Below are positions 11,643 to 28,490 of a DNA stretch of 32,000 nucleotides, in pieces. Both the position numbers and the translations under genes were made by a program. Within the stretch, counting starts at the first letter, position 1; each line of letters begins with the position of its first letter. The notes under the pieces are model-generated. The model saw only the letters and a program-made list of their open reading frames with translations, had not been told where the DNA came from and made no database searches. The stretch covers positions 1,500,001-1,532,000 of the forward strand of contig NC_009033.1 of the NCBI RefSeq assembly GCF_000015945.1, given 5' to 3'. The stretch is from Staphylothermus marinus F1 (lineage in GTDB: Archaea; Thermoproteota; Thermoprotei_A; Sulfolobales; Desulfurococcaceae).

Positions 11643-11917
11643 TAATTAACGATCACCATGCTTTAGATAAAATAATACTTAGTTTAAAACATATGGTTTC
11701 CCTTACATCATTTTGCTACAATAAATACTTGAACAAGCTTCTCCCTCTTACAGTATTAGGATTTTAATACTTTTCATTGAGGTATCTTTAGACTATTCGC
11801 TTGTTTAGATGCTATGGTTGTTTTGGAAATTATGAAAACTATGATTGTTTTGAGGGTTAGTTGTTAGGTTCGTTTTATATATTTTTGTATAGTTTTTATT
11901 GGTGGTGGGGGTTGGGG

Positions 11918-13144
11918 GTGAGGGTTTATGCAACCGTTAAGATAAGGGCGGTTGCCCCCAATCCCAGCCTCCACCACAAACTCTATCTATTTCTTAGATC
12001 ATATTGTGACTGGACACAGTATATTATAGATAATATATGGTTTGAAGATAAGATTCCATCTATGAAGAAACTACACGACAAATTTTATGGTTTGTTGAGG
12101 AGCATGGGTTTTCGTGCACATCACTGCCACAAAATTGAGCGTAGAGCAAAAGAAATTGTTAAATCCGTTAAGAAGAATAGGGGTAGGAAACCAGTATTGA
12201 GAAAATTAACAGCTAGAATAGATTATGAAGACTATAGACTAGATTTGAGGAGTAAAACATTGAAGATAGCTGTGCTCGATAATGAATGGATAGTTTTGAA
12301 GCTTAAATGGTACAGTTACATAAACAAATATATTAGTGATGATTGGAAGCTTAAGGAAATACTTGTATCTTTTAGAAACAATAATATATGGATATACTTG
12401 GTTTTTGAGAGAGAAGTTGTTTTTAGGAAGCCTAGAACTGTTATGGGTGTTGATATTAATTTTGACAACATAACATATACTATACTGGACATGAATGGTA
12501 GATTAGTATCTATGGGTATTATTCCATTCAAGGGTTTACGTAGAGCACTTCATTATAAGAAGCTTGCTGAGAAATTGCAGAAGAGGTATCCTAGGAATTG
12601 GAGATATGTTAAATGGGTTAGAAATGTTAGAGCTAGATGGTTGGGGAGAGCTAAGAACATATTGAGAGACACATCACACTATATAGCCAAAAAGATTGTA
12701 GGGATAGCAGATGAACATAACTCGGTAATAGTATTAGAGGATCTAAAAAATATTAAATCAAATAATAAGGGTAAAAGGTTTAATTGGAGAATAAATTTCT
12801 GGACATATCGTAGAATACAGGAGTACATCTACTATAAAGCATTAATAAAGAATATTCCTGTAGCATTCATTGATCCAAAATACAGTTCTAAGAAATCACC
12901 TATAGGTGATAGATTAATTTTCATAAACTATAGGTATGTTAGGTTGCCTAATGGATTCATTGTTACTCGCGACATTATTGCTTCATGGAACCTTGCACTC
13001 AGATATCTGCGGATGAAGGGCTCTGGGTGGTCTATGTGGAGCCCCGATAACTCCCTCAATGAAGGAATGAAGCCCCAACTCAAGAGGGGGAAGCCCGTGC
13101 AAGTATCAAAAATAACCAAAATAACCATAGTTTCTAAAAGATAA
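11918..13144 (+). CDS. tnpB: TnpB/OrfB RuvC-like (RNA-guided) endonuclease, zinc-ribbon cysteines absent
   Basis: RuvC-I is VMGVDINFDN, RuvC-II is VIVLEDLKNIK and RuvC-III is VTRDIIASWNLA. GTG at 11918 is the likely start, because the upstream 19 codons of the ORF-track frame lie in the IS left end. The usual CxxC...CxxC segment is replaced by YSSKKSPIGDRL...VRLPNGF. Confidence 0.85.
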   Translation: MRVYATVKIRAVAPNPSLHHKLYLFLRSYCDWTQYIIDNIWFEDKIPSMKKLHDKFYGLLRSMGFRAHHCHKIERRAKEIVKSVKKNRGRKPVLRKLTARIDYEDYRLDLRSKTLKIAVLDNEWIVLKLKWYSYINKYISDDWKLKEILVSFRNNNIWIYLVFEREVVFRKPRTVMGVDINFDNITYTILDMNGRLVSMGIIPFKGLRRALHYKKLAEKLQKRYPRNWRYVKWVRNVRARWLGRAKNILRDTSHYIAKKIVGIADEHNSVIVLEDLKNIKSNNKGKRFNWRINFWTYRRIQEYIYYKALIKNIPVAFIDPKYSSKKSPIGDRLIFINYRYVRLPNGFIVTRDIIASWNLALRYLRMKGSGWSMWSPDNSLNEGMKPQLKRGKPVQVSKITKITIVSKR

Positions 13145-13158
13145 TGCACGGGCAACCA
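13009..13158 (+). ncRNA. candidate omega/reRNA scaffold overlapping the tnpB 3' end and right end
   Basis: The segment is conserved at nucleotide level in two loci that lack a tnpB ORF (28251-28392 plus strand, 25436-25577 minus strand). The stems gggctc/gagccc (13018-13023/13039-13044) and gcccgtgc/gcacgggc (13093-13100/13146-13153) are kept in all copies while the loops diverge. Confidence 0.4.
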
Positions 13159-13330
13159 TTAATATTTCTATCCAACCCTAAACCTTTTCATCACATAGGG
13201 GATCAAGGTAATAGATATGTTGGAGACGTAGTTGCTGATCAATTCCTTAACGGAGTCTAGCCGAGATAATTTATATATATTCATATAGGTTTATAGAATA
13301 ATAATAGTAGATACTTCTTGTAAGTATTGT

Positions 13331-14303: not shown

Positions 14304-14711
14304 TTATGGATCTAGTTTTTCTGCTTCCCCCCATAGAATTCTCACTAGATCCATAAATTTATCTAGCTCGTTTCTAAGAGTATCATATATTATGTCATGC
14401 CTTATCTCAGCATAGCCGTGAACAAGTATGTTCCTCATACCCGGAACAGCTAGTAGGATGTCAGAATATTTTCTTGGAACAATATTGGCATATATAATTG
14501 ATTCAACCACCTCCCTATAGCTTGGCCCCCTCGAGACCCCTTTACGAGCAGCTATGAATGCTGCTAGGTCAAGTATGGATTCTAAAACTATGTGTAAATG
14601 CCTCTCAGCCAATGCTTGTAGATCCTCGTTTACCCTGTATTCATCCCATGGTGTCTCAACAATATTTCTAAGCTTCTCCAAGCTCCTCCTAGCCCTAGAA
14701 ATTCTTGCCAC
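14304..14711 (-). CDS. hepT: HepT-type HEPN toxin (DUF86)
   Basis: The Rx4H motif is in MRNILVHGYAEI. 135 aa. It overlaps the upstream MntA gene by 17 nt. Confidence 0.85.
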   Translation of the reverse strand: MARISRARRSLEKLRNIVETPWDEYRVNEDLQALAERHLHIVLESILDLAAFIAARKGVSRGPSYREVVESIIYANIVPRKYSDILLAVPGMRNILVHGYAEIRHDIIYDTLRNELDKFMDLVRILWGEAEKLDP

Positions 14712-15114
14712 CAGACCTGGTGAGGGCGTAGTGCATCTCCCTCCTAAACAACTTTATTAGGGGCTCTAGATCAGCTACTTCATCTATAGCTTTTGCTAAG
14801 TCTTCATAGTATTCGTTCAAGCATTCCCTGCCACAATAATATATTAGGTCTCCATTGGAGAGAGCCTCCCACACAGCTATAGGGTTCCAGTCATCGATCA
14901 CCAGTAGATCAACTCTTCTACCAGCACACTTTTCAAGCATAGATAATATGAGTCCTCGCTCAACAAGTGATAGATTTCTCCCAGCCTTAACGGCAACATC
15001 ATAGTCGCTATGAGGACCAGCATATCCTCCAGCATGGGAGCCGTAAACTACTAGATACCTCAGACCATATTTTGAGGCAATACTTCTAAAACAATCATAT
15101 ATTCCCTTATCCAA
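14695..15114 (-). CDS. mntA: MntA-type nucleotidyltransferase antitoxin
   Basis: VVYGSHAGGYAGPHSDYDVAV carries the GSx(n)DxD motif. It lies directly upstream of the DUF86 gene. Confidence 0.85.
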   Translation of the reverse strand: MDKGIYDCFRSIASKYGLRYLVVYGSHAGGYAGPHSDYDVAVKAGRNLSLVERGLILSMLEKCAGRRVDLLVIDDWNPIAVWEALSNGDLIYYCGRECLNEYYEDLAKAIDEVADLEPLIKLFRREMHYALTRSGGKNF

Positions 15115-15249: not shown

Positions 15250-15672
15250 GTGGGTTTACTGGGTAGAGGTTTCGGGTTAGGTCTTCACAAATATGATCCA
15301 TCCAGGTTTAAAAGTGCATACTTTCTAGATGTTTCCGATGCACAATATAATCCCCTAGACCCTGAGGAAATTGTTGCAGGTATTCATAGTGCTAGAAATC
15401 CAGGCTTCTACGGTATAGCTAAGTTTAGGAATGAGTCAATGGTTGCAGGGGTGGAGACCCATTATAAATGGGGAGGATACGAGCTATATGTTGATGCTGA
15501 GAATGAGCATCTCTACGTAGCTACGGGTAGGAATATTGTTGAGGTAAGGGATCTAGGTGATCTAAGATTTATTAAGAAATATGAATTACCTGTCAGTGGA
15601 GTAGTTGGGTTGGCATTAGATTCTGAGAACAGGATCTGGTTTATTTCTAATAGTCTATATGGTTTAGAGTAA
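15250..15672 (+). CDS. hypothetical protein (possible beta-propeller-like repeats)
   Basis: 140-aa ORF with a GTG start. Segments such as LYVATGRNIVEVRD and NRIWFISNS are reminiscent of NHL/propeller blades, but the resemblance is weak. Confidence 0.45.
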   Translation: MGLLGRGFGLGLHKYDPSRFKSAYFLDVSDAQYNPLDPEEIVAGIHSARNPGFYGIAKFRNESMVAGVETHYKWGGYELYVDAENEHLYVATGRNIVEVRDLGDLRFIKKYELPVSGVVGLALDSENRIWFISNSLYGLE

Positions 15673-15687
15673 ACAATACTCTAAACC
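15661..15687 (+). other. perfect 9-bp hairpin enclosing the stop codon of 15250-15672
   Basis: ggtttagag (15661-15669), loop taaacaata, ctctaaacc (15679-15687). This can be read directly from the sequence. Confidence 0.5.
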
Positions 15688-15717
15688 AGCTAGTATTGAT
15701 TCTCTAAGAATATCTCC

Positions 15718-15933
15718 TTGGGACAGAAGATCTTGGTGGCTGATTATGGTAGGCATATAGTTGAGTGTCATGGTGAAGATGGGGAATTATTGGGAGTCCT
15801 ATACTTCCCATATGTTTCAGGTGTGAAGTGGTGTGTTGATGAGAGAGTAGTGTTGTCGAGCGGTAAATACCCTAAACACACATTCTTAATACTTATAACC
15901 GGCGCCCCACCGAAACTGTTAAATATTGCATAG
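15718..15933 (+). CDS. hypothetical protein (same frame as 15250-15672)
   Basis: 71-aa ORF with a TTG start. ILVADYGRHIVECHGEDGELLGVLYF resembles an NHL-type blade. It is in the same frame as the upstream ORF but separated by four stops within 45 nt. Confidence 0.35.
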   Translation: MGQKILVADYGRHIVECHGEDGELLGVLYFPYVSGVKWCVDERVVLSSGKYPKHTFLILITGAPPKLLNIA

Positions 15934-15943
15934 GTATTTATAG

Positions 15944-16170
15944 GTGTTGGGCCTGCTCGGGATGCGGGTTTGTGGATGGAGACCTGAGGGGCAGGTCTTT
16001 AAGTGTTCAAGATGAAGGGTTTACCCCACAGCATAGGAGCTGTGGGCAGGGGTTACCCGGATCGGGGAGGAGGCCGATGATATGCTCCCCGATGAAAGGG
16101 GGGCTGAGGTTGATGAATCCCAAAGCCTACATAGGCCTATCAAGACCTACGTAGGCTGAACCCCCTACAT
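15944..16170. ncRNA. GC-rich, hairpin-dense island: candidate structured RNA of unknown class
   Basis: Hand count gives 124 G+C in 220 nt (56%) for 15951-16170, against about 38% in the next 60 nt. Four local hairpins are visible: agacctg/caggtct (15980-15998), cccacagc/gctgtggg (16025-16046), cggggag/ctccccg (16063-16091), and agcctac..tagg/ccta..gtaggct (16124-16157). The only ORF here (15972-16154) is R/G/S/P-rich and unconvincing. Confidence 0.4.
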
Positions 16171-16176
16171 AATACG

Positions 16177-16623
16177 ATGTATTCTTGCTGGTCAGGCTAC
16201 TTAATGGATTATGGTACTCAAGCATCTAACCGTGCAGATATGTTCTATATTGATAGAGTATTAATTCAATGGTATCTAGGATTCTTCGAACTAAAACTAC
16301 CCCTTCCAAAGAACACCCCCTACATAATCCGTGTTGGAAACGGTATGTATAGGAGTGGGGAGTTGATATGGGAGGAGGGGTTTGATTCATTCACACCCAT
16401 ACTAGTATTCAATAAATGCTACCTGATCTCTAGGCCTAGAACTGCTGAGTTATTATTGGAGAGGATGACGCCATACTGTAGTATTATAGCTCCAAAACCA
16501 AGTATTGAATGGGATAAGATAGCATTGTTTAAGGGGGAGTACAGTATAGATGTGCCAGGAGTTTATAGAGTTAGAGCAGTGAAGAAAGGATTTGTCGAAG
16601 TATATGCGATCTGTAAACCATGA
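16177..16623 (+). CDS. hypothetical protein
   Basis: 148-aa ATG ORF. No family recognised. Confidence 0.45.
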   Translation: MYSCWSGYLMDYGTQASNRADMFYIDRVLIQWYLGFFELKLPLPKNTPYIIRVGNGMYRSGELIWEEGFDSFTPILVFNKCYLISRPRTAELLLERMTPYCSIIAPKPSIEWDKIALFKGEYSIDVPGVYRVRAVKKGFVEVYAICKP

Positions 16624-16879: not shown

Positions 16880-17470
16880 GTGGTTTTAAGTAGTGAGGAG
16901 AAAGAGCGTATTCTGAGAGCTGTCGAGGAGGATAGAGAGTTCCGATATGCTTTAATGGGGCTACTAGGGTTCAAGGAGCTACTTGAAAGATTCGCTAAAC
17001 TTGAAGAAAGAGTTTACAAATTAGAAGAGAGACAGCAGATGTTAGAGGAGAGAGTTAATGAGTTGAGTTTAGAGATGGCTAGGTTCAGTAAGGTGTTGAT
17101 AACTATTGCCCATAGGTTTGGTGTTATTACTGAGGAGGTATTTAGAGACACTATTGCCGGGTTATTATCCAAGTATTTCGGTGCATCAGCCTCTAAGCAG
17201 AGTATATTCGATGATGAAGGCATAGTTTTTGGTTATCCATCAATGATCGATGTAGACGTTGTTGTCAAGAATAATGTTCATATACTTGTAAAAACAAAGA
17301 GCAGAGTTGATCCTGGAGATATATTGATGCTTCTACGAGTAGCAAAACTTTATGAGAAGAAAACAGGTGTTAAACCAAAACTTGCAATAGTAGCGGGGTT
17401 TGTTTCGGGTAAGGCGAGAGAAGTTGCATTAAAATATGGAGTAGATATTTACACCTACATAGAAGAATAA
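16880..17470 (+). CDS. coiled-coil (DUF3782-like) plus PD-(D/E)xK nuclease-like C-terminal domain protein
   Basis: The N-terminus SEEKERILRAVEEDREFRYALMGLLGF plus LEERVYKLEERQQMLEERVNEL is a coiled coil. The C-terminus EEVFRD...GYPSMIDVDVVVKNNVHILVKTKSRV..GDI..LLRVAKLYE fits the archaeal DUF3782/restriction-endonuclease-like architecture as I recall it. Confidence 0.55.
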   Translation: MVLSSEEKERILRAVEEDREFRYALMGLLGFKELLERFAKLEERVYKLEERQQMLEERVNELSLEMARFSKVLITIAHRFGVITEEVFRDTIAGLLSKYFGASASKQSIFDDEGIVFGYPSMIDVDVVVKNNVHILVKTKSRVDPGDILMLLRVAKLYEKKTGVKPKLAIVAGFVSGKAREVALKYGVDIYTYIEE

Positions 17471-17547: not shown

Positions 17548-17913
17548 TTACTTGTCTTTAGAGAGTTTACTACATAGTTTTATAGCTGTTCTAAACATTT
17601 CATCATATATTGGATCACTTGCTTGTGAAGGAGTTAATACTATGAGGTCTAGTGGGAAACTATGCTTCCTAAGCCTCCTAAGCCTCACAGCCTCCTCTAA
17701 GGGGTCGCTGGATTCCCTAACAATAACCACTACATCATAATCACTATATGGCAAATAGTCTCCACGAGCTCTCGAACCAACAAGATATGCTTCCAAAACA
17801 TTATCCATACATAAAACACTAACAAATTCCTTAAACCCCTCCTCCCAACTCTTCATCCTCCTAGCATACATGCTAAGCTTACGGATCCGCAACCCCATCA
17901 ACCCATGAAACAA
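17548..17913 (-). CDS. minimal nucleotidyltransferase (MNT), no adjacent HEPN partner
   Basis: AYLVGSRARGDYLPYSDYDVVVIV carries the GSx(n)DxD motif. Only 77 nt separate its stop from the convergent gene at 16880-17470, and no HEPN ORF is found on either side. Confidence 0.8.
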   Translation of the reverse strand: MFHGLMGLRIRKLSMYARRMKSWEEGFKEFVSVLCMDNVLEAYLVGSRARGDYLPYSDYDVVVIVRESSDPLEEAVRLRRLRKHSFPLDLIVLTPSQASDPIYDEMFRTAIKLCSKLSKDK

Positions 17914-25435: not shown

Positions 25436-25700
25436 GTGGTTGCCCGTGCATTATCTTTTGGTTATTTTGGATATTATGGGTACTTGCACGGGCTTCCCCC
25501 TCTTGTGTCGGGTTTTCATCCCTTCATCGAGGGGGCTATCGGGGCTCCACACCGACCACATAGAGCCCTTCATCTGCTTTTTATTAACCATAATATTAGT
25601 GAGGGGTTTATAAAGTGAACCCTATGCATACAAAACATGTTCCGAATAGTTTTCATAGCTTCTAAAAGAGCCGAAATACCCAAATAAATGAACAGTCTAA
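25436..25700 (-). mobile_element. MITE-like non-autonomous derivative of the IS200/IS605 element (left end plus right end/omegaRNA-like module)
   Basis: The reverse complement begins ttagactgttcatttatttgg.. (left-end-like) and ends ..aaaagataatgcacgggcaaccac (right end). It shares an identical 63-nt core with copy C and the gttcactttataaacccctcactaata junction segment. There is no tnpB ORF. Confidence 0.65.
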
Positions 25701-27952: not shown

Positions 27953-28126
27953 ATATAAACACTATATAAAAAATATATATTACACTATATAAAAGTGTTA
28001 GAATTACACTTCTTGACAAGCACCATAATACGCTCTTGACAGATAGTATATTAGCTCTTAAAAGAAGTTTTAACATCCATATTTAGATCCAGAAAATTAT
28101 TAATGTATCCTTGGAAGCAAAGTGTG

Positions 28127-28392
28127 TTTAGACTATTTGCTTATTTGGATACTATGGTTGTTTTGGAAACTGTGGAAACCATGATTGTTTTAATTATTGG
28201 GTTCACTTTATAAACCCCTCACTAATATAATGGTTAATGATTTGTGAAATGCAGATGAAGGGCTCATGGTGGTCTATGTGGAGCCCCGATAGCCCCCTCG
28301 ATGAAGGGATGAAAACCCGACACAAGAGGGGGAAGCCCGTGCAGATATCCAAAGTTTCCAAAACAACCAAAAGATAAAGCACGGGCAACCAC
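28127..28392 (+). mobile_element. MITE-like non-autonomous derivative of the IS200/IS605 element (left end plus right end/omegaRNA-like module)
   Basis: 28127-28197, tttagactatttgcttatttggatactatggttgttttggaaactgtggaaaccatgattgtttt, aligns with the IS left end at 11787 onward. 28251-28392 aligns with the tnpB 3' end and right end at 13009-13158. tnpB itself is absent. Confidence 0.65.
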
Positions 28393-28490
28393 TATGATGT
28401 ATGTGAGGGGTAAGCATGGATGCTAATACTTGGTTCATCCATACCATGATCGGATACAATATATTTTCTGAGCGGACATTAATGCTTTAT

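Follow-up and report, generated by a model that had tools for sequence, protein, structure and literature searches.

A GC-rich hairpin island of Staphylothermus marinus F1 is probably the omega-RNA region of a protein-less IS607-family TnpB element inserted in a host gene

The sequence analysed here is a stretch of 32,000 nucleotides (nt) from the chromosome of the archaeon Staphylothermus marinus F1 (assembly GCF_000015945.1, contig NC_009033.1, positions 1,500,001 to 1,532,000 of the forward strand), subsequently designated the window; all coordinates refer to it. It contains a GC-rich, hairpin-dense island at 15944-16170, located between two open reading frames (ORFs), 15718-15933 and 16177-16623, which an initial annotation based on the letters alone had described as hypothetical genes. 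We assign the island, with high confidence, to the right-end/omega-RNA region of an IS607-family TnpB element, which survives as a 258-nt non-autonomous deletion derivative. Elements of this kind are already known, and the island does not represent a new RNA class; Rfam contains no entry for its sequence and structure family.

The bias in base composition was reproduced exactly. Positions 15951-16170 comprise 124 G+C in 220 nt (56.4%), 15944-16170 likewise reach 56.4%, and the whole window has a GC content of 37.8%; no other 220-nt stretch of the 32 kb is richer than 15949-16168, with 57.3% GC. All four hairpins noted initially are present at their coordinates. Hairpin 1 (agacctg-agggg-caggtct; 15980-15998, + strand) lies within the former coding stretch KDLRGQVF, and its sequence AGACCTGARGGGGCAGGT is also found in the full-length relatives described below. 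Hairpin 2 (CCCACAGC/GCTGTGGG) occupies 16025-16046 on the + strand, while hairpin 3 (ATCGGGGAG/CTCCCCGAT; 16061-16093) and hairpin 4, an imperfect palindrome (15 nt; 16124-16157), were recovered by direct reading and by a repeat search. Folding energy of the island beats shuffled controls on both strands (z = -2.8 for the + strand, z = -4.6 for the - strand). No hallmark motif of tRNA, SRP RNA, RNase P RNA or a correctly spaced C/D-box RNA had been recognized by eye, and the searches agreed with this: Rfam returned no family for the whole window at gathering thresholds and only chance-level C/D and microRNA matches at E <= 10 over 15700-16400, and ARAGORN detected no tRNA or tmRNA. The repeat search revealed no second copy of the island within the window, and nothing meaningful was matched in collections of phages and plasmids by blastn in its "distant" mode.

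Comparison with homologues revealed that the two flanking ORFs are in fact halves of a single gene. Metagenomic homologues of ORF 16177-16623 (148 amino acids (aa); the annotated version P0001 has 139 aa and another start) are 60-65% identical, longer and uninterrupted, reading ...FLTLITGA-LHNTASSGWFGYVVDYG... across the position in question. An exact look-up of the 148-aa protein returned no entry, owing to the different start of the annotated version. The segment before the FLTLITGA junction corresponds to ORF 15718-15933, and the segment after it to the window from 16165 on. DNA alignment with three uninterrupted homologous genes (alignment A1) contains a single clean 258-nt gap opposite 15907-16164 (+ strand). 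Contiguity of the flanking ORFs in relatives, a comparison already suggested in the initial annotation, was decisive: the island is an insertion. No host bases were duplicated and only a CCC microhomology is shared; the insertion border can slide by 1-3 nt inside the C-runs 15905-15908 and 16161-16165. The 5' part of the host gene (15659-15906, + strand, ending ...ITGA) is defined by alignment A1 and the protein homologues P0002-P0004, and the 3' part (16165-16623, + strand, LHNT... to the stop codon) by the homologues and the same alignment; the insert length of 258 nt keeps both parts in one frame. Apart from the insertion, the gene carries a TAG codon at 15665 (AAG or AAA in homologues) and a 1-nt deletion near 15722-15728. 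Given the stop, the frameshift and the insertion, this gene, designated gene B below, is most likely dead. The annotation is thereby corrected, as two "hypothetical genes" are replaced by one gene most likely killed by a transposon insertion.

An insert of exactly 258 nt in sense orientation, which leaves both host halves in frame, is also what would be expected of an intron restoring the host protein, either of the archaeal bulge-helix-bulge type or IStron-like and self-splicing. IStrons and archaeal bulge-helix-bulge introns such as the one in cbf5 are likewise structured RNAs that lie in sense orientation within coding sequence and keep its frame, and fusions of IS607 elements with group I introns exist in Clostridia (PMC10690162). 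However, the bulge-helix-bulge motif, in which a 4-bp helix with a 3-nt bulge on either side marks the exon-intron junctions, is absent from the junctions at 15904-15907 and 16162-16165 on inspection by hand as well as by script; scanning both topologies over 2,800 junction pairs produced 3 weak chance matches elsewhere. No group I or group II intron was matched in Rfam even at E <= 10, the host gene would still contain its upstream stop and frameshift, and other copies of the element family reside in intergenic DNA. Splicing has left no sign at this locus, and we consider an intron extremely unlikely.

The nature of the insert became apparent from its relatives. Pfam assigned no family to the 60-aa ORF of the island (15972-16154) or to the frame-0 translation, and kinship with TnpB emerged only via the related loci. 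When the island's sole long open frame was translated and this pseudo-protein was run against one genome per species, six loci were obtained in genomes of uncultured archaea, one genome accounting for four of the six. Searching metagenomes for exact occurrences of the invariant core CCRATGATATGCTCYCCGATGAAA contributed 14 more, bringing the related loci to 20 (L006-L025). These archaeal loci are of two kinds, consisting either of the last ~220 nt of tnpB plus the right transposon end or of a protein-less mini-element. In L012 and L023, an ORF of 437 or 443 aa ends 84-100 nt past the start of the conserved pattern. Both ORFs possess the Pfam domain Cas12f1-like_TNB (PF07282) and, by direct reading, RuvC-type D, E and D positions together with a CxxC...CxxC finger, identifying them by sequence as TnpB proteins. 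A gene with a resolvase domain lies directly upstream of tnpB in L023, and a further locus, L027, encodes a complete IS607-family transposase (NF033518, 245 bits; cut-off 110) that overlaps tnpB. In the protein-less loci (L008, L020, L022, L010 (= L017), L011 (= L021) and L013), nothing but a left end of ~60 nt, homologous to that of L027, adjoins the conserved right part. One element type occurs within three different flanks in L008, L020 and L022, indicating that the mini-elements move. The right ends of all family members terminate in AACC(C/T)C, and immediately thereafter the flanks of all independent copies are unrelated.

The closest relative, a full-length element from a second Staphylothermus species, allowed the parts of the S. 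marinus insert to be identified. This element, locus L026 of S. hellenicus, runs from a left end through an apparently frameshifted resolvase gene and tnpB (protein P0027) to a right end closing with ...GGCTGAACCCC. By blastn, island positions 16049-16164 are 82% identical to the right end of L026, 15916-16014 are 72% identical to the zinc-finger region of its tnpB, and 15895-15934 are 85% identical to its left end plus flank (about 2358-2395, upstream of tnpA). Accordingly, the insert begins with a left-end remnant (ccaccgaaactgttaaatattgcatagg; 15907-15934, + strand), which is homologous to the left ends of L026, L027 and the mini-elements L008, L013 and L020. The first 60 nt had at one stage been regarded in their entirety as a left end containing a TATA box; this view was abandoned, as blastn matched only ~28 nt to the left end of S. 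hellenicus and the remainder aligns with the 3' region of tnpB. This decayed tnpB 3' part spans 15935-16154 on the + strand, as determined by BLASTP, blastn and the Pfam assignment of intact relatives. It includes the 60-aa ORF with zinc-finger remains (CSGCGFVDGDLRG) and the tail GLPGSGRRPMICSPMKGGLRLM; its frame-0 translation matches the last ~100 residues of the 443-aa TnpB of L023 with two internal gaps (BLASTP, E = 4e-13). The initial annotation had treated a protein homologue of the 15972-16154 frame as an argument against a structured RNA. The frame does have such a homologue in the TnpB C-terminus, but the RNA overlaps the 3' end of tnpB in the relatives, so that the RNA reading and the protein reading both hold.

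Relative to intact genes, tnpB of the island has suffered two internal deletions. Deletion joints are found at shared short repeats, namely CTGTTAAA between left end and tnpB and AGATG within tnpB, and a third deletion removed the distal part of a long stem-loop, of which the 8-bp closing stem (hairpin 2) is kept. The island thus derives, by deletions at microhomologies, from an IS607-type element of Staphylothermus.

Two side observations concern the S. hellenicus copy. Its resolvase-type tnpA (2400-3000 of L026; CP002051) appears frameshifted and is missing from the called genes, whereas tnpB is intact; if the frameshift is genuine, L026 too would need a transposase supplied in trans. Moreover, the left host flanks of the S. 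marinus insert (15895-15906) and of L026 (2358-2368) are alike (ATAACCGGCGCC and ATAACCACGCCC, respectively), even though the two insertion sites are unrelated genes. The shared flank may reflect a target or transposon-associated motif (TAM) containing CGCC; the left flanks of the remaining family copies have only G-CC in common.

The ends of the insert resemble those of the IS607 family (IS607, IS1535, ISC1926). IS607 ends lack inverted repeats, cause no target duplication, exchange DNA at a GG dinucleotide present in termini and target, and carry short, helically phased direct repeats (PMC6188088, PMC10690162). Likewise, no inverted repeats joining the termini were detected within 15890-16180, where the repeat search returned three internal hairpins only. 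The dinucleotide CC flanks the element on both sides: the target reads GGCG-CC-CTACAT, the left junction GCG-CC-CCACCG and the right junction GAACC-CC-CTACAT, the predicted target of TnpB cleavage at this site being GGCGCC-CTACATAATACGATGTATTC. In the left end, the repeat search picked up ATAGGTATT and ATAGGTGTT (15930-15948, + strand), two direct ATAGGTNTT repeats with a spacing of 10 bp, and the right end contains the related motifs CATAGGC (16130) and CGTAGGC (16150) at a distance of 20 bp. These repeats are candidate binding motifs of the serine transposase. Full-length relatives of the island also share with the IS607 family a tnpA of the MerR helix-turn-helix/resolvase type that overlaps tnpB. 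In contrast to typical members, the island has lost both genes, and its dinucleotide is CC when read on the tnpB-sense strand. Classical miniature inverted-repeat transposable elements are similarly small, non-coding, multi-copy and found in genes, but the inverted repeats and target-site duplication that define them are missing here. An IS200/IS605 parent with a Y1 transposase was set aside, as the left flanks share no tetra- or pentanucleotide and the relatives carry a serine recombinase.

A duplicated sequence was noticed at the right border. The 17-mer ACCCCCTACATAAT(A/C)CG occurs twice (16160-16176 and 16315-16331; 0 expected by chance), the first copy spanning the border and the host flank and the second lying 155 nt downstream in the same host gene but in another frame. 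In either copy, the host part is native coding sequence, which corresponds to LHNT and TPYIIR, respectively, in homologues, and the motif CCTACATA is also present inside hairpin 4 (16126-16133). The pair may reflect target choice by the transposase or, alternatively, provide a second near-match to the guide predicted below.

The right part of the family adopts a conserved RNA structure. Alignment A4, comprising 18 distinct copies, was folded by RNAalifold into five helices, P1-P5, with 35 pairs, 19 of which show compensatory changes. Paired cells amount to 96.6%, compared with 81.5% in column shuffles (none of 500 reached the observed value), and drop to 32-50% when the partners are slid by 1-3 columns. 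All helices are given for the + strand. P1 joins 16049-16054 with 16159-16164 (GGGGUU/AACCCC, replaced by GAGGUU/AACCUC in three copies), P2 joins 16065-16068 with 16118-16121, and P3 joins 16072-16075 with 16108-16111. P4 (16084-16090 with 16098-16104) is capped by the loop GAUGAAA and reads CUCCCC/GGGGGG here and CUCUCC/GGAGAG elsewhere. For hairpin 3, the comparative data thus favour the alternative cccc-gatgaaa-gggg pairing over the cggggag/ctccccg stem, both of which had been put forward initially. P5 (about 16124-16135 with 16146-16157), which coincides with hairpin 4, is hypervariable, with both partners altered in 13 of its 14 model pairs; its two distal model pairs are unformed in the S. 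marinus copy. G·U pairs in P3 (16 of 18 sequences) and in P5 fit only the + strand, i.e. the tnpB-sense strand. Upstream of this core lies hairpin 2, designated stem P0 (16025-16046, + strand), which forms the 8-bp base of a stem-loop of ~60-80 nt in full-length copies. According to single-sequence folds of 10 family members, this base stem covaries (CCCACAGC/GCUGUGGG, CCCAGAGUC/GACUCUGGG or CCUCCCUCC/GGAGGGGG).

Covariance model R1, built from A4, has one match in the window (16032-16164, + strand only, 124.5 bits, E = 7e-38) and matches every related locus. Based on alignment and model, the conserved core occupies 16049-16164 on the + strand and ends with AACCCC at the transposon border, so that the structure and the element stop at the same position (16164). 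The model match likewise extends to the border in L012, L014, L023, L026 and L027, where the stop codon of tnpB is located 84-100 nt downstream of the point at which the conserved pattern begins. In full-length relatives, the RNA thus shares its sequence with the final ~30 codons of tnpB and ends precisely where the transposon does.

Of the initial proposal, a novel free-standing RNA, the structured RNA itself has stood, being backed by covariation on the + strand and lacking an Rfam family; its status as a separate gene of a new class has not, as it is the right end of a transposon. A host gene for a non-coding RNA between two protein genes would agree with the strong covarying structure, the missing Rfam entry and the GC spike, which is typical of structural RNAs in thermophiles. 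Against this, relatives possess the interrupted gene in one piece, the open frame of the island is what remains of a TnpB, and every homologue is either a tnpB tail or a mini-element made of left and right end with unrelated flanks, present in several copies in one genome. We therefore judge a host gene of this kind very improbable.

Next to the transposon assignment stands the question of whether the hairpins act as RNA at all. Were they to serve solely as DNA, as sites for transposase binding or recombination, no functional RNA would be made from them. The arms of P5 hold the motifs CATAGGC and CGTAGGC that recur as the direct repeats of the left end, the IS607 transposase binds repeated motifs in the ends (PMC6188088), and P5 of S. 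marinus comes closer to a perfect palindrome when considered as DNA or on the - strand. On the other hand, IS607 transposes via double-stranded DNA, which requires no intrastrand helices (PMC10690162), the long-range helices P1-P3 covary, and the strand preference of the G·U pairs mentioned above is that of an RNA sense to tnpB. In addition, the location at the 3' end of tnpB and the border is that of known omega RNAs. A purely DNA-level role is hence regarded as unlikely.

Sense orientation to tnpB, overlap with its 3' end, a scaffold of several helices and an end at the border together correspond to the anatomy of TnpB omega RNAs, and by analogy the GC-rich hairpins are the putative scaffold of such an RNA, the guide RNA of the TnpB nuclease. 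The omega RNAs of ISDra2, CboIStron and the Sulfolobus protein SisTnpB1 overlap the 3' end of tnpB in sense direction, form multi-helix scaffolds and stop at the right border, beyond which a copy-specific flank follows as guide; SisTnpB1 also has a thermophilic archaeal host, as does the island. An archaeal omega RNA is exemplified in 10.1101/2023.03.06.531077, and use of the flank past the right end as guide is documented for TnpB (PMC8612924, PMC10055086). Correspondingly, the host sequence immediately past the right end of the S. marinus copy (ctacataatacgatgtattc; 16165-16184, + strand) would be the guide segment. The island differs from these systems in that its family is not in Rfam, belongs to another TnpB clade (N-terminus of the MJ0013 type, PF27234), carries a C/D-like kink-turn motif and stands without any tnpB. 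Protein-less IS605 elements that retain their omega RNA have been described already (PMC10055086). The PATE-like mini IS605 elements of Geobacillus (Meers et al.) resemble the island in being protein-less and multi-copy, in keeping the scaffold and in their expected dependence on transposase and TnpB in trans. They derive, however, from a parent with a Y1 transposase, whereas the parent of the island is of the IS607 type with a serine recombinase and a double-stranded intermediate. The island family also has no conserved tetra- or pentanucleotide target in the left flank, and this copy arose via microhomology deletions.

Several points weigh against the omega-RNA assignment. It rests on position, structure and analogy, and the transcript, its ends and its binding by TnpB are predictions. 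Moreover, we know of no omega RNA from this archaeal TnpB clade that has been characterized experimentally. The TnpB relatives score 63-76 bits with the NCBIfam model guided_TnpB, under its cut-off of 100, although they pass Pfam PF07282. Left-flank motifs vary among copies, and comparison does not fix a target motif. In P5 of S. marinus, A·C mismatches on the + strand would be G·U pairs on the - strand, and the - strand folds with the better z-score; S. hellenicus has perfect pairs at the positions of these mismatches. Finally, coding also constrains part of the core in full-length copies, but conservation of the core in the non-coding mini copies argues that coding is not the whole cause.

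Between P3 and P4, the scaffold contains an asymmetric loop (16076-16107, + strand) whose columns are invariant or nearly so in 18 of 18 sequences. One side reads GAUGAUAU (16076-16083) and the other UGA (16105-16107), which together with the preceding C gives a CUGA box. Judged from this pattern, the loop resembles a C/D-box kink-turn, and this likeness explains the weak Rfam matches to C/D RNAs. Its context at 16072-16111, CC-GAUGAUAU-GC facing C-UGA-GG, is kept even in the non-coding mini copies. A C/D-box or other L7Ae-dependent small RNA would accommodate the GAUGA, CUGA and UGAUGA boxes, the loop itself and the weak Rfam matches to sR55 and sR10. However, these matches score 13.4 bits (sR55; threshold 35) and 10.5 bits (sR10; threshold 45), the boxes are spaced by 8, 23 and 36 nt in place of the about 12 nt expected, and they are invariant across copies with no guide-like variable segment between them. 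Such an RNA thus appears highly implausible as the identity of the island. A bolder extension of the omega-RNA assignment is that the protein-less elements are self-contained mobile guide-RNA genes, made of the tnpA promoter of the left end and an omega scaffold whose invariant kink-turn recruits the archaeal protein L7Ae. A literature search retrieved no paper tying TnpB guide RNAs to L7Ae or kink-turns, and we offer the idea as a speculation that is probably wrong. If true, TnpB ribonucleoproteins would have an architecture specific to archaea, and genomes devoid of the cognate nuclease would harbour a reservoir of orphan guides.

For the omega-RNA element proper, the following course of events is proposed. 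Through a serine transposase acting in trans, the element would have entered the host gene at a CC (= GG) dinucleotide, splitting it without target duplication. Transcription of the + strand, either by read-through from the host or from the tnpA promoter-like TTAAATA/TTTATA in the left end, would produce an RNA in which the host flank CTACATAATACG... comes after the scaffold and serves as guide. As expected from the cited literature, scaffold and 3' flank (CTACATAATACGATGT...) could, in the presence of a cognate TnpB, lead this nuclease to cleave the donor site once it has been emptied, whereupon the element would be restored by recombination. The S. marinus copy would now be an orphan, decaying guide-RNA module. 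Indeed, no S. marinus protein is among the best 120 homologues of the TnpB of L023 or of S. hellenicus P0027 (all >= 47% identical), a search that covered annotated proteins, with pseudogenes and unannotated copies outside it. The window's own TnpB (11861-13144) is only 24% identical. Because no cognate TnpB was found in S. marinus and P5 carries A·C mismatches, the copy is most probably an orphan and probably decaying.

The genome probably contains at least one further copy of the core. Two contigs in the Logan assembly of run SRR4046664 match the window perfectly, the first breaking off at 16066 and the second resuming at 16135. With 31-mers, breaks at these positions are expected from a repeat that spans exactly 16037-16164, i.e. 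from the joint of the stem-loop deletion to the right border.

If the assignment is correct, a conspicuous GC spike in a hyperthermophile genome is explained as debris of a transposon guide RNA and not as a new cellular RNA. For an archaeal IS607-type TnpB omega RNA that Rfam lacks, the analysis further contributes a structure backed by covariation together with a covariance model; the model should be useful for annotating Desulfurococcales genomes and for mining thermostable TnpB editors. TnpB P0027 of S. hellenicus, its predicted RNA and the ends of its element are now defined. Protein-less elements of IS607 origin that keep the scaffold add to the evidence for guide RNAs spreading apart from their nucleases.

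As to the surroundings, gene B (15659-16623 without the insert) forms a conserved hypothetical gene pair with gene A (15250-15672). The two overlap by a few bases, as they do in the metagenome locus L003, where they lie beside a glycoside hydrolase family 130 gene. Nearby are nucleotidyltransferase and HepT-like (HEPN) genes of the toxin-antitoxin type (14304-15114 and 17548-17913) and a gene for a DUF3782/PD-(D/E)XK protein (16880-17470). The region around the locus is variable and rich in mobile and defence-type genes.

A second TnpB family is present in the same window. Its full-length parent (11782-13161, + strand) contains the TnpB gene 11861-13144 mentioned above, and two further protein-less mini-elements of ~265-275 nt, 28122-28398 (+ strand) and 25436-25700 (- strand), belong to it. 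The right parts of these mini-elements share the layout of the island, with GATGAAGGG..., CCCCGATAGCCCC, a terminal hairpin GCCCGTGCA...TGCACGGGC and the end AACCAC. They match model R1 weakly, and for this family a cognate TnpB is present. Another right terminus of the second family (GTGGTTGTCTGTGCATTATCTTTT; 2539-2562), 92% identical to 25436-25459, adjoins short ORFs on the - strand (1702-2461) that are perhaps a fragmented tnpB.

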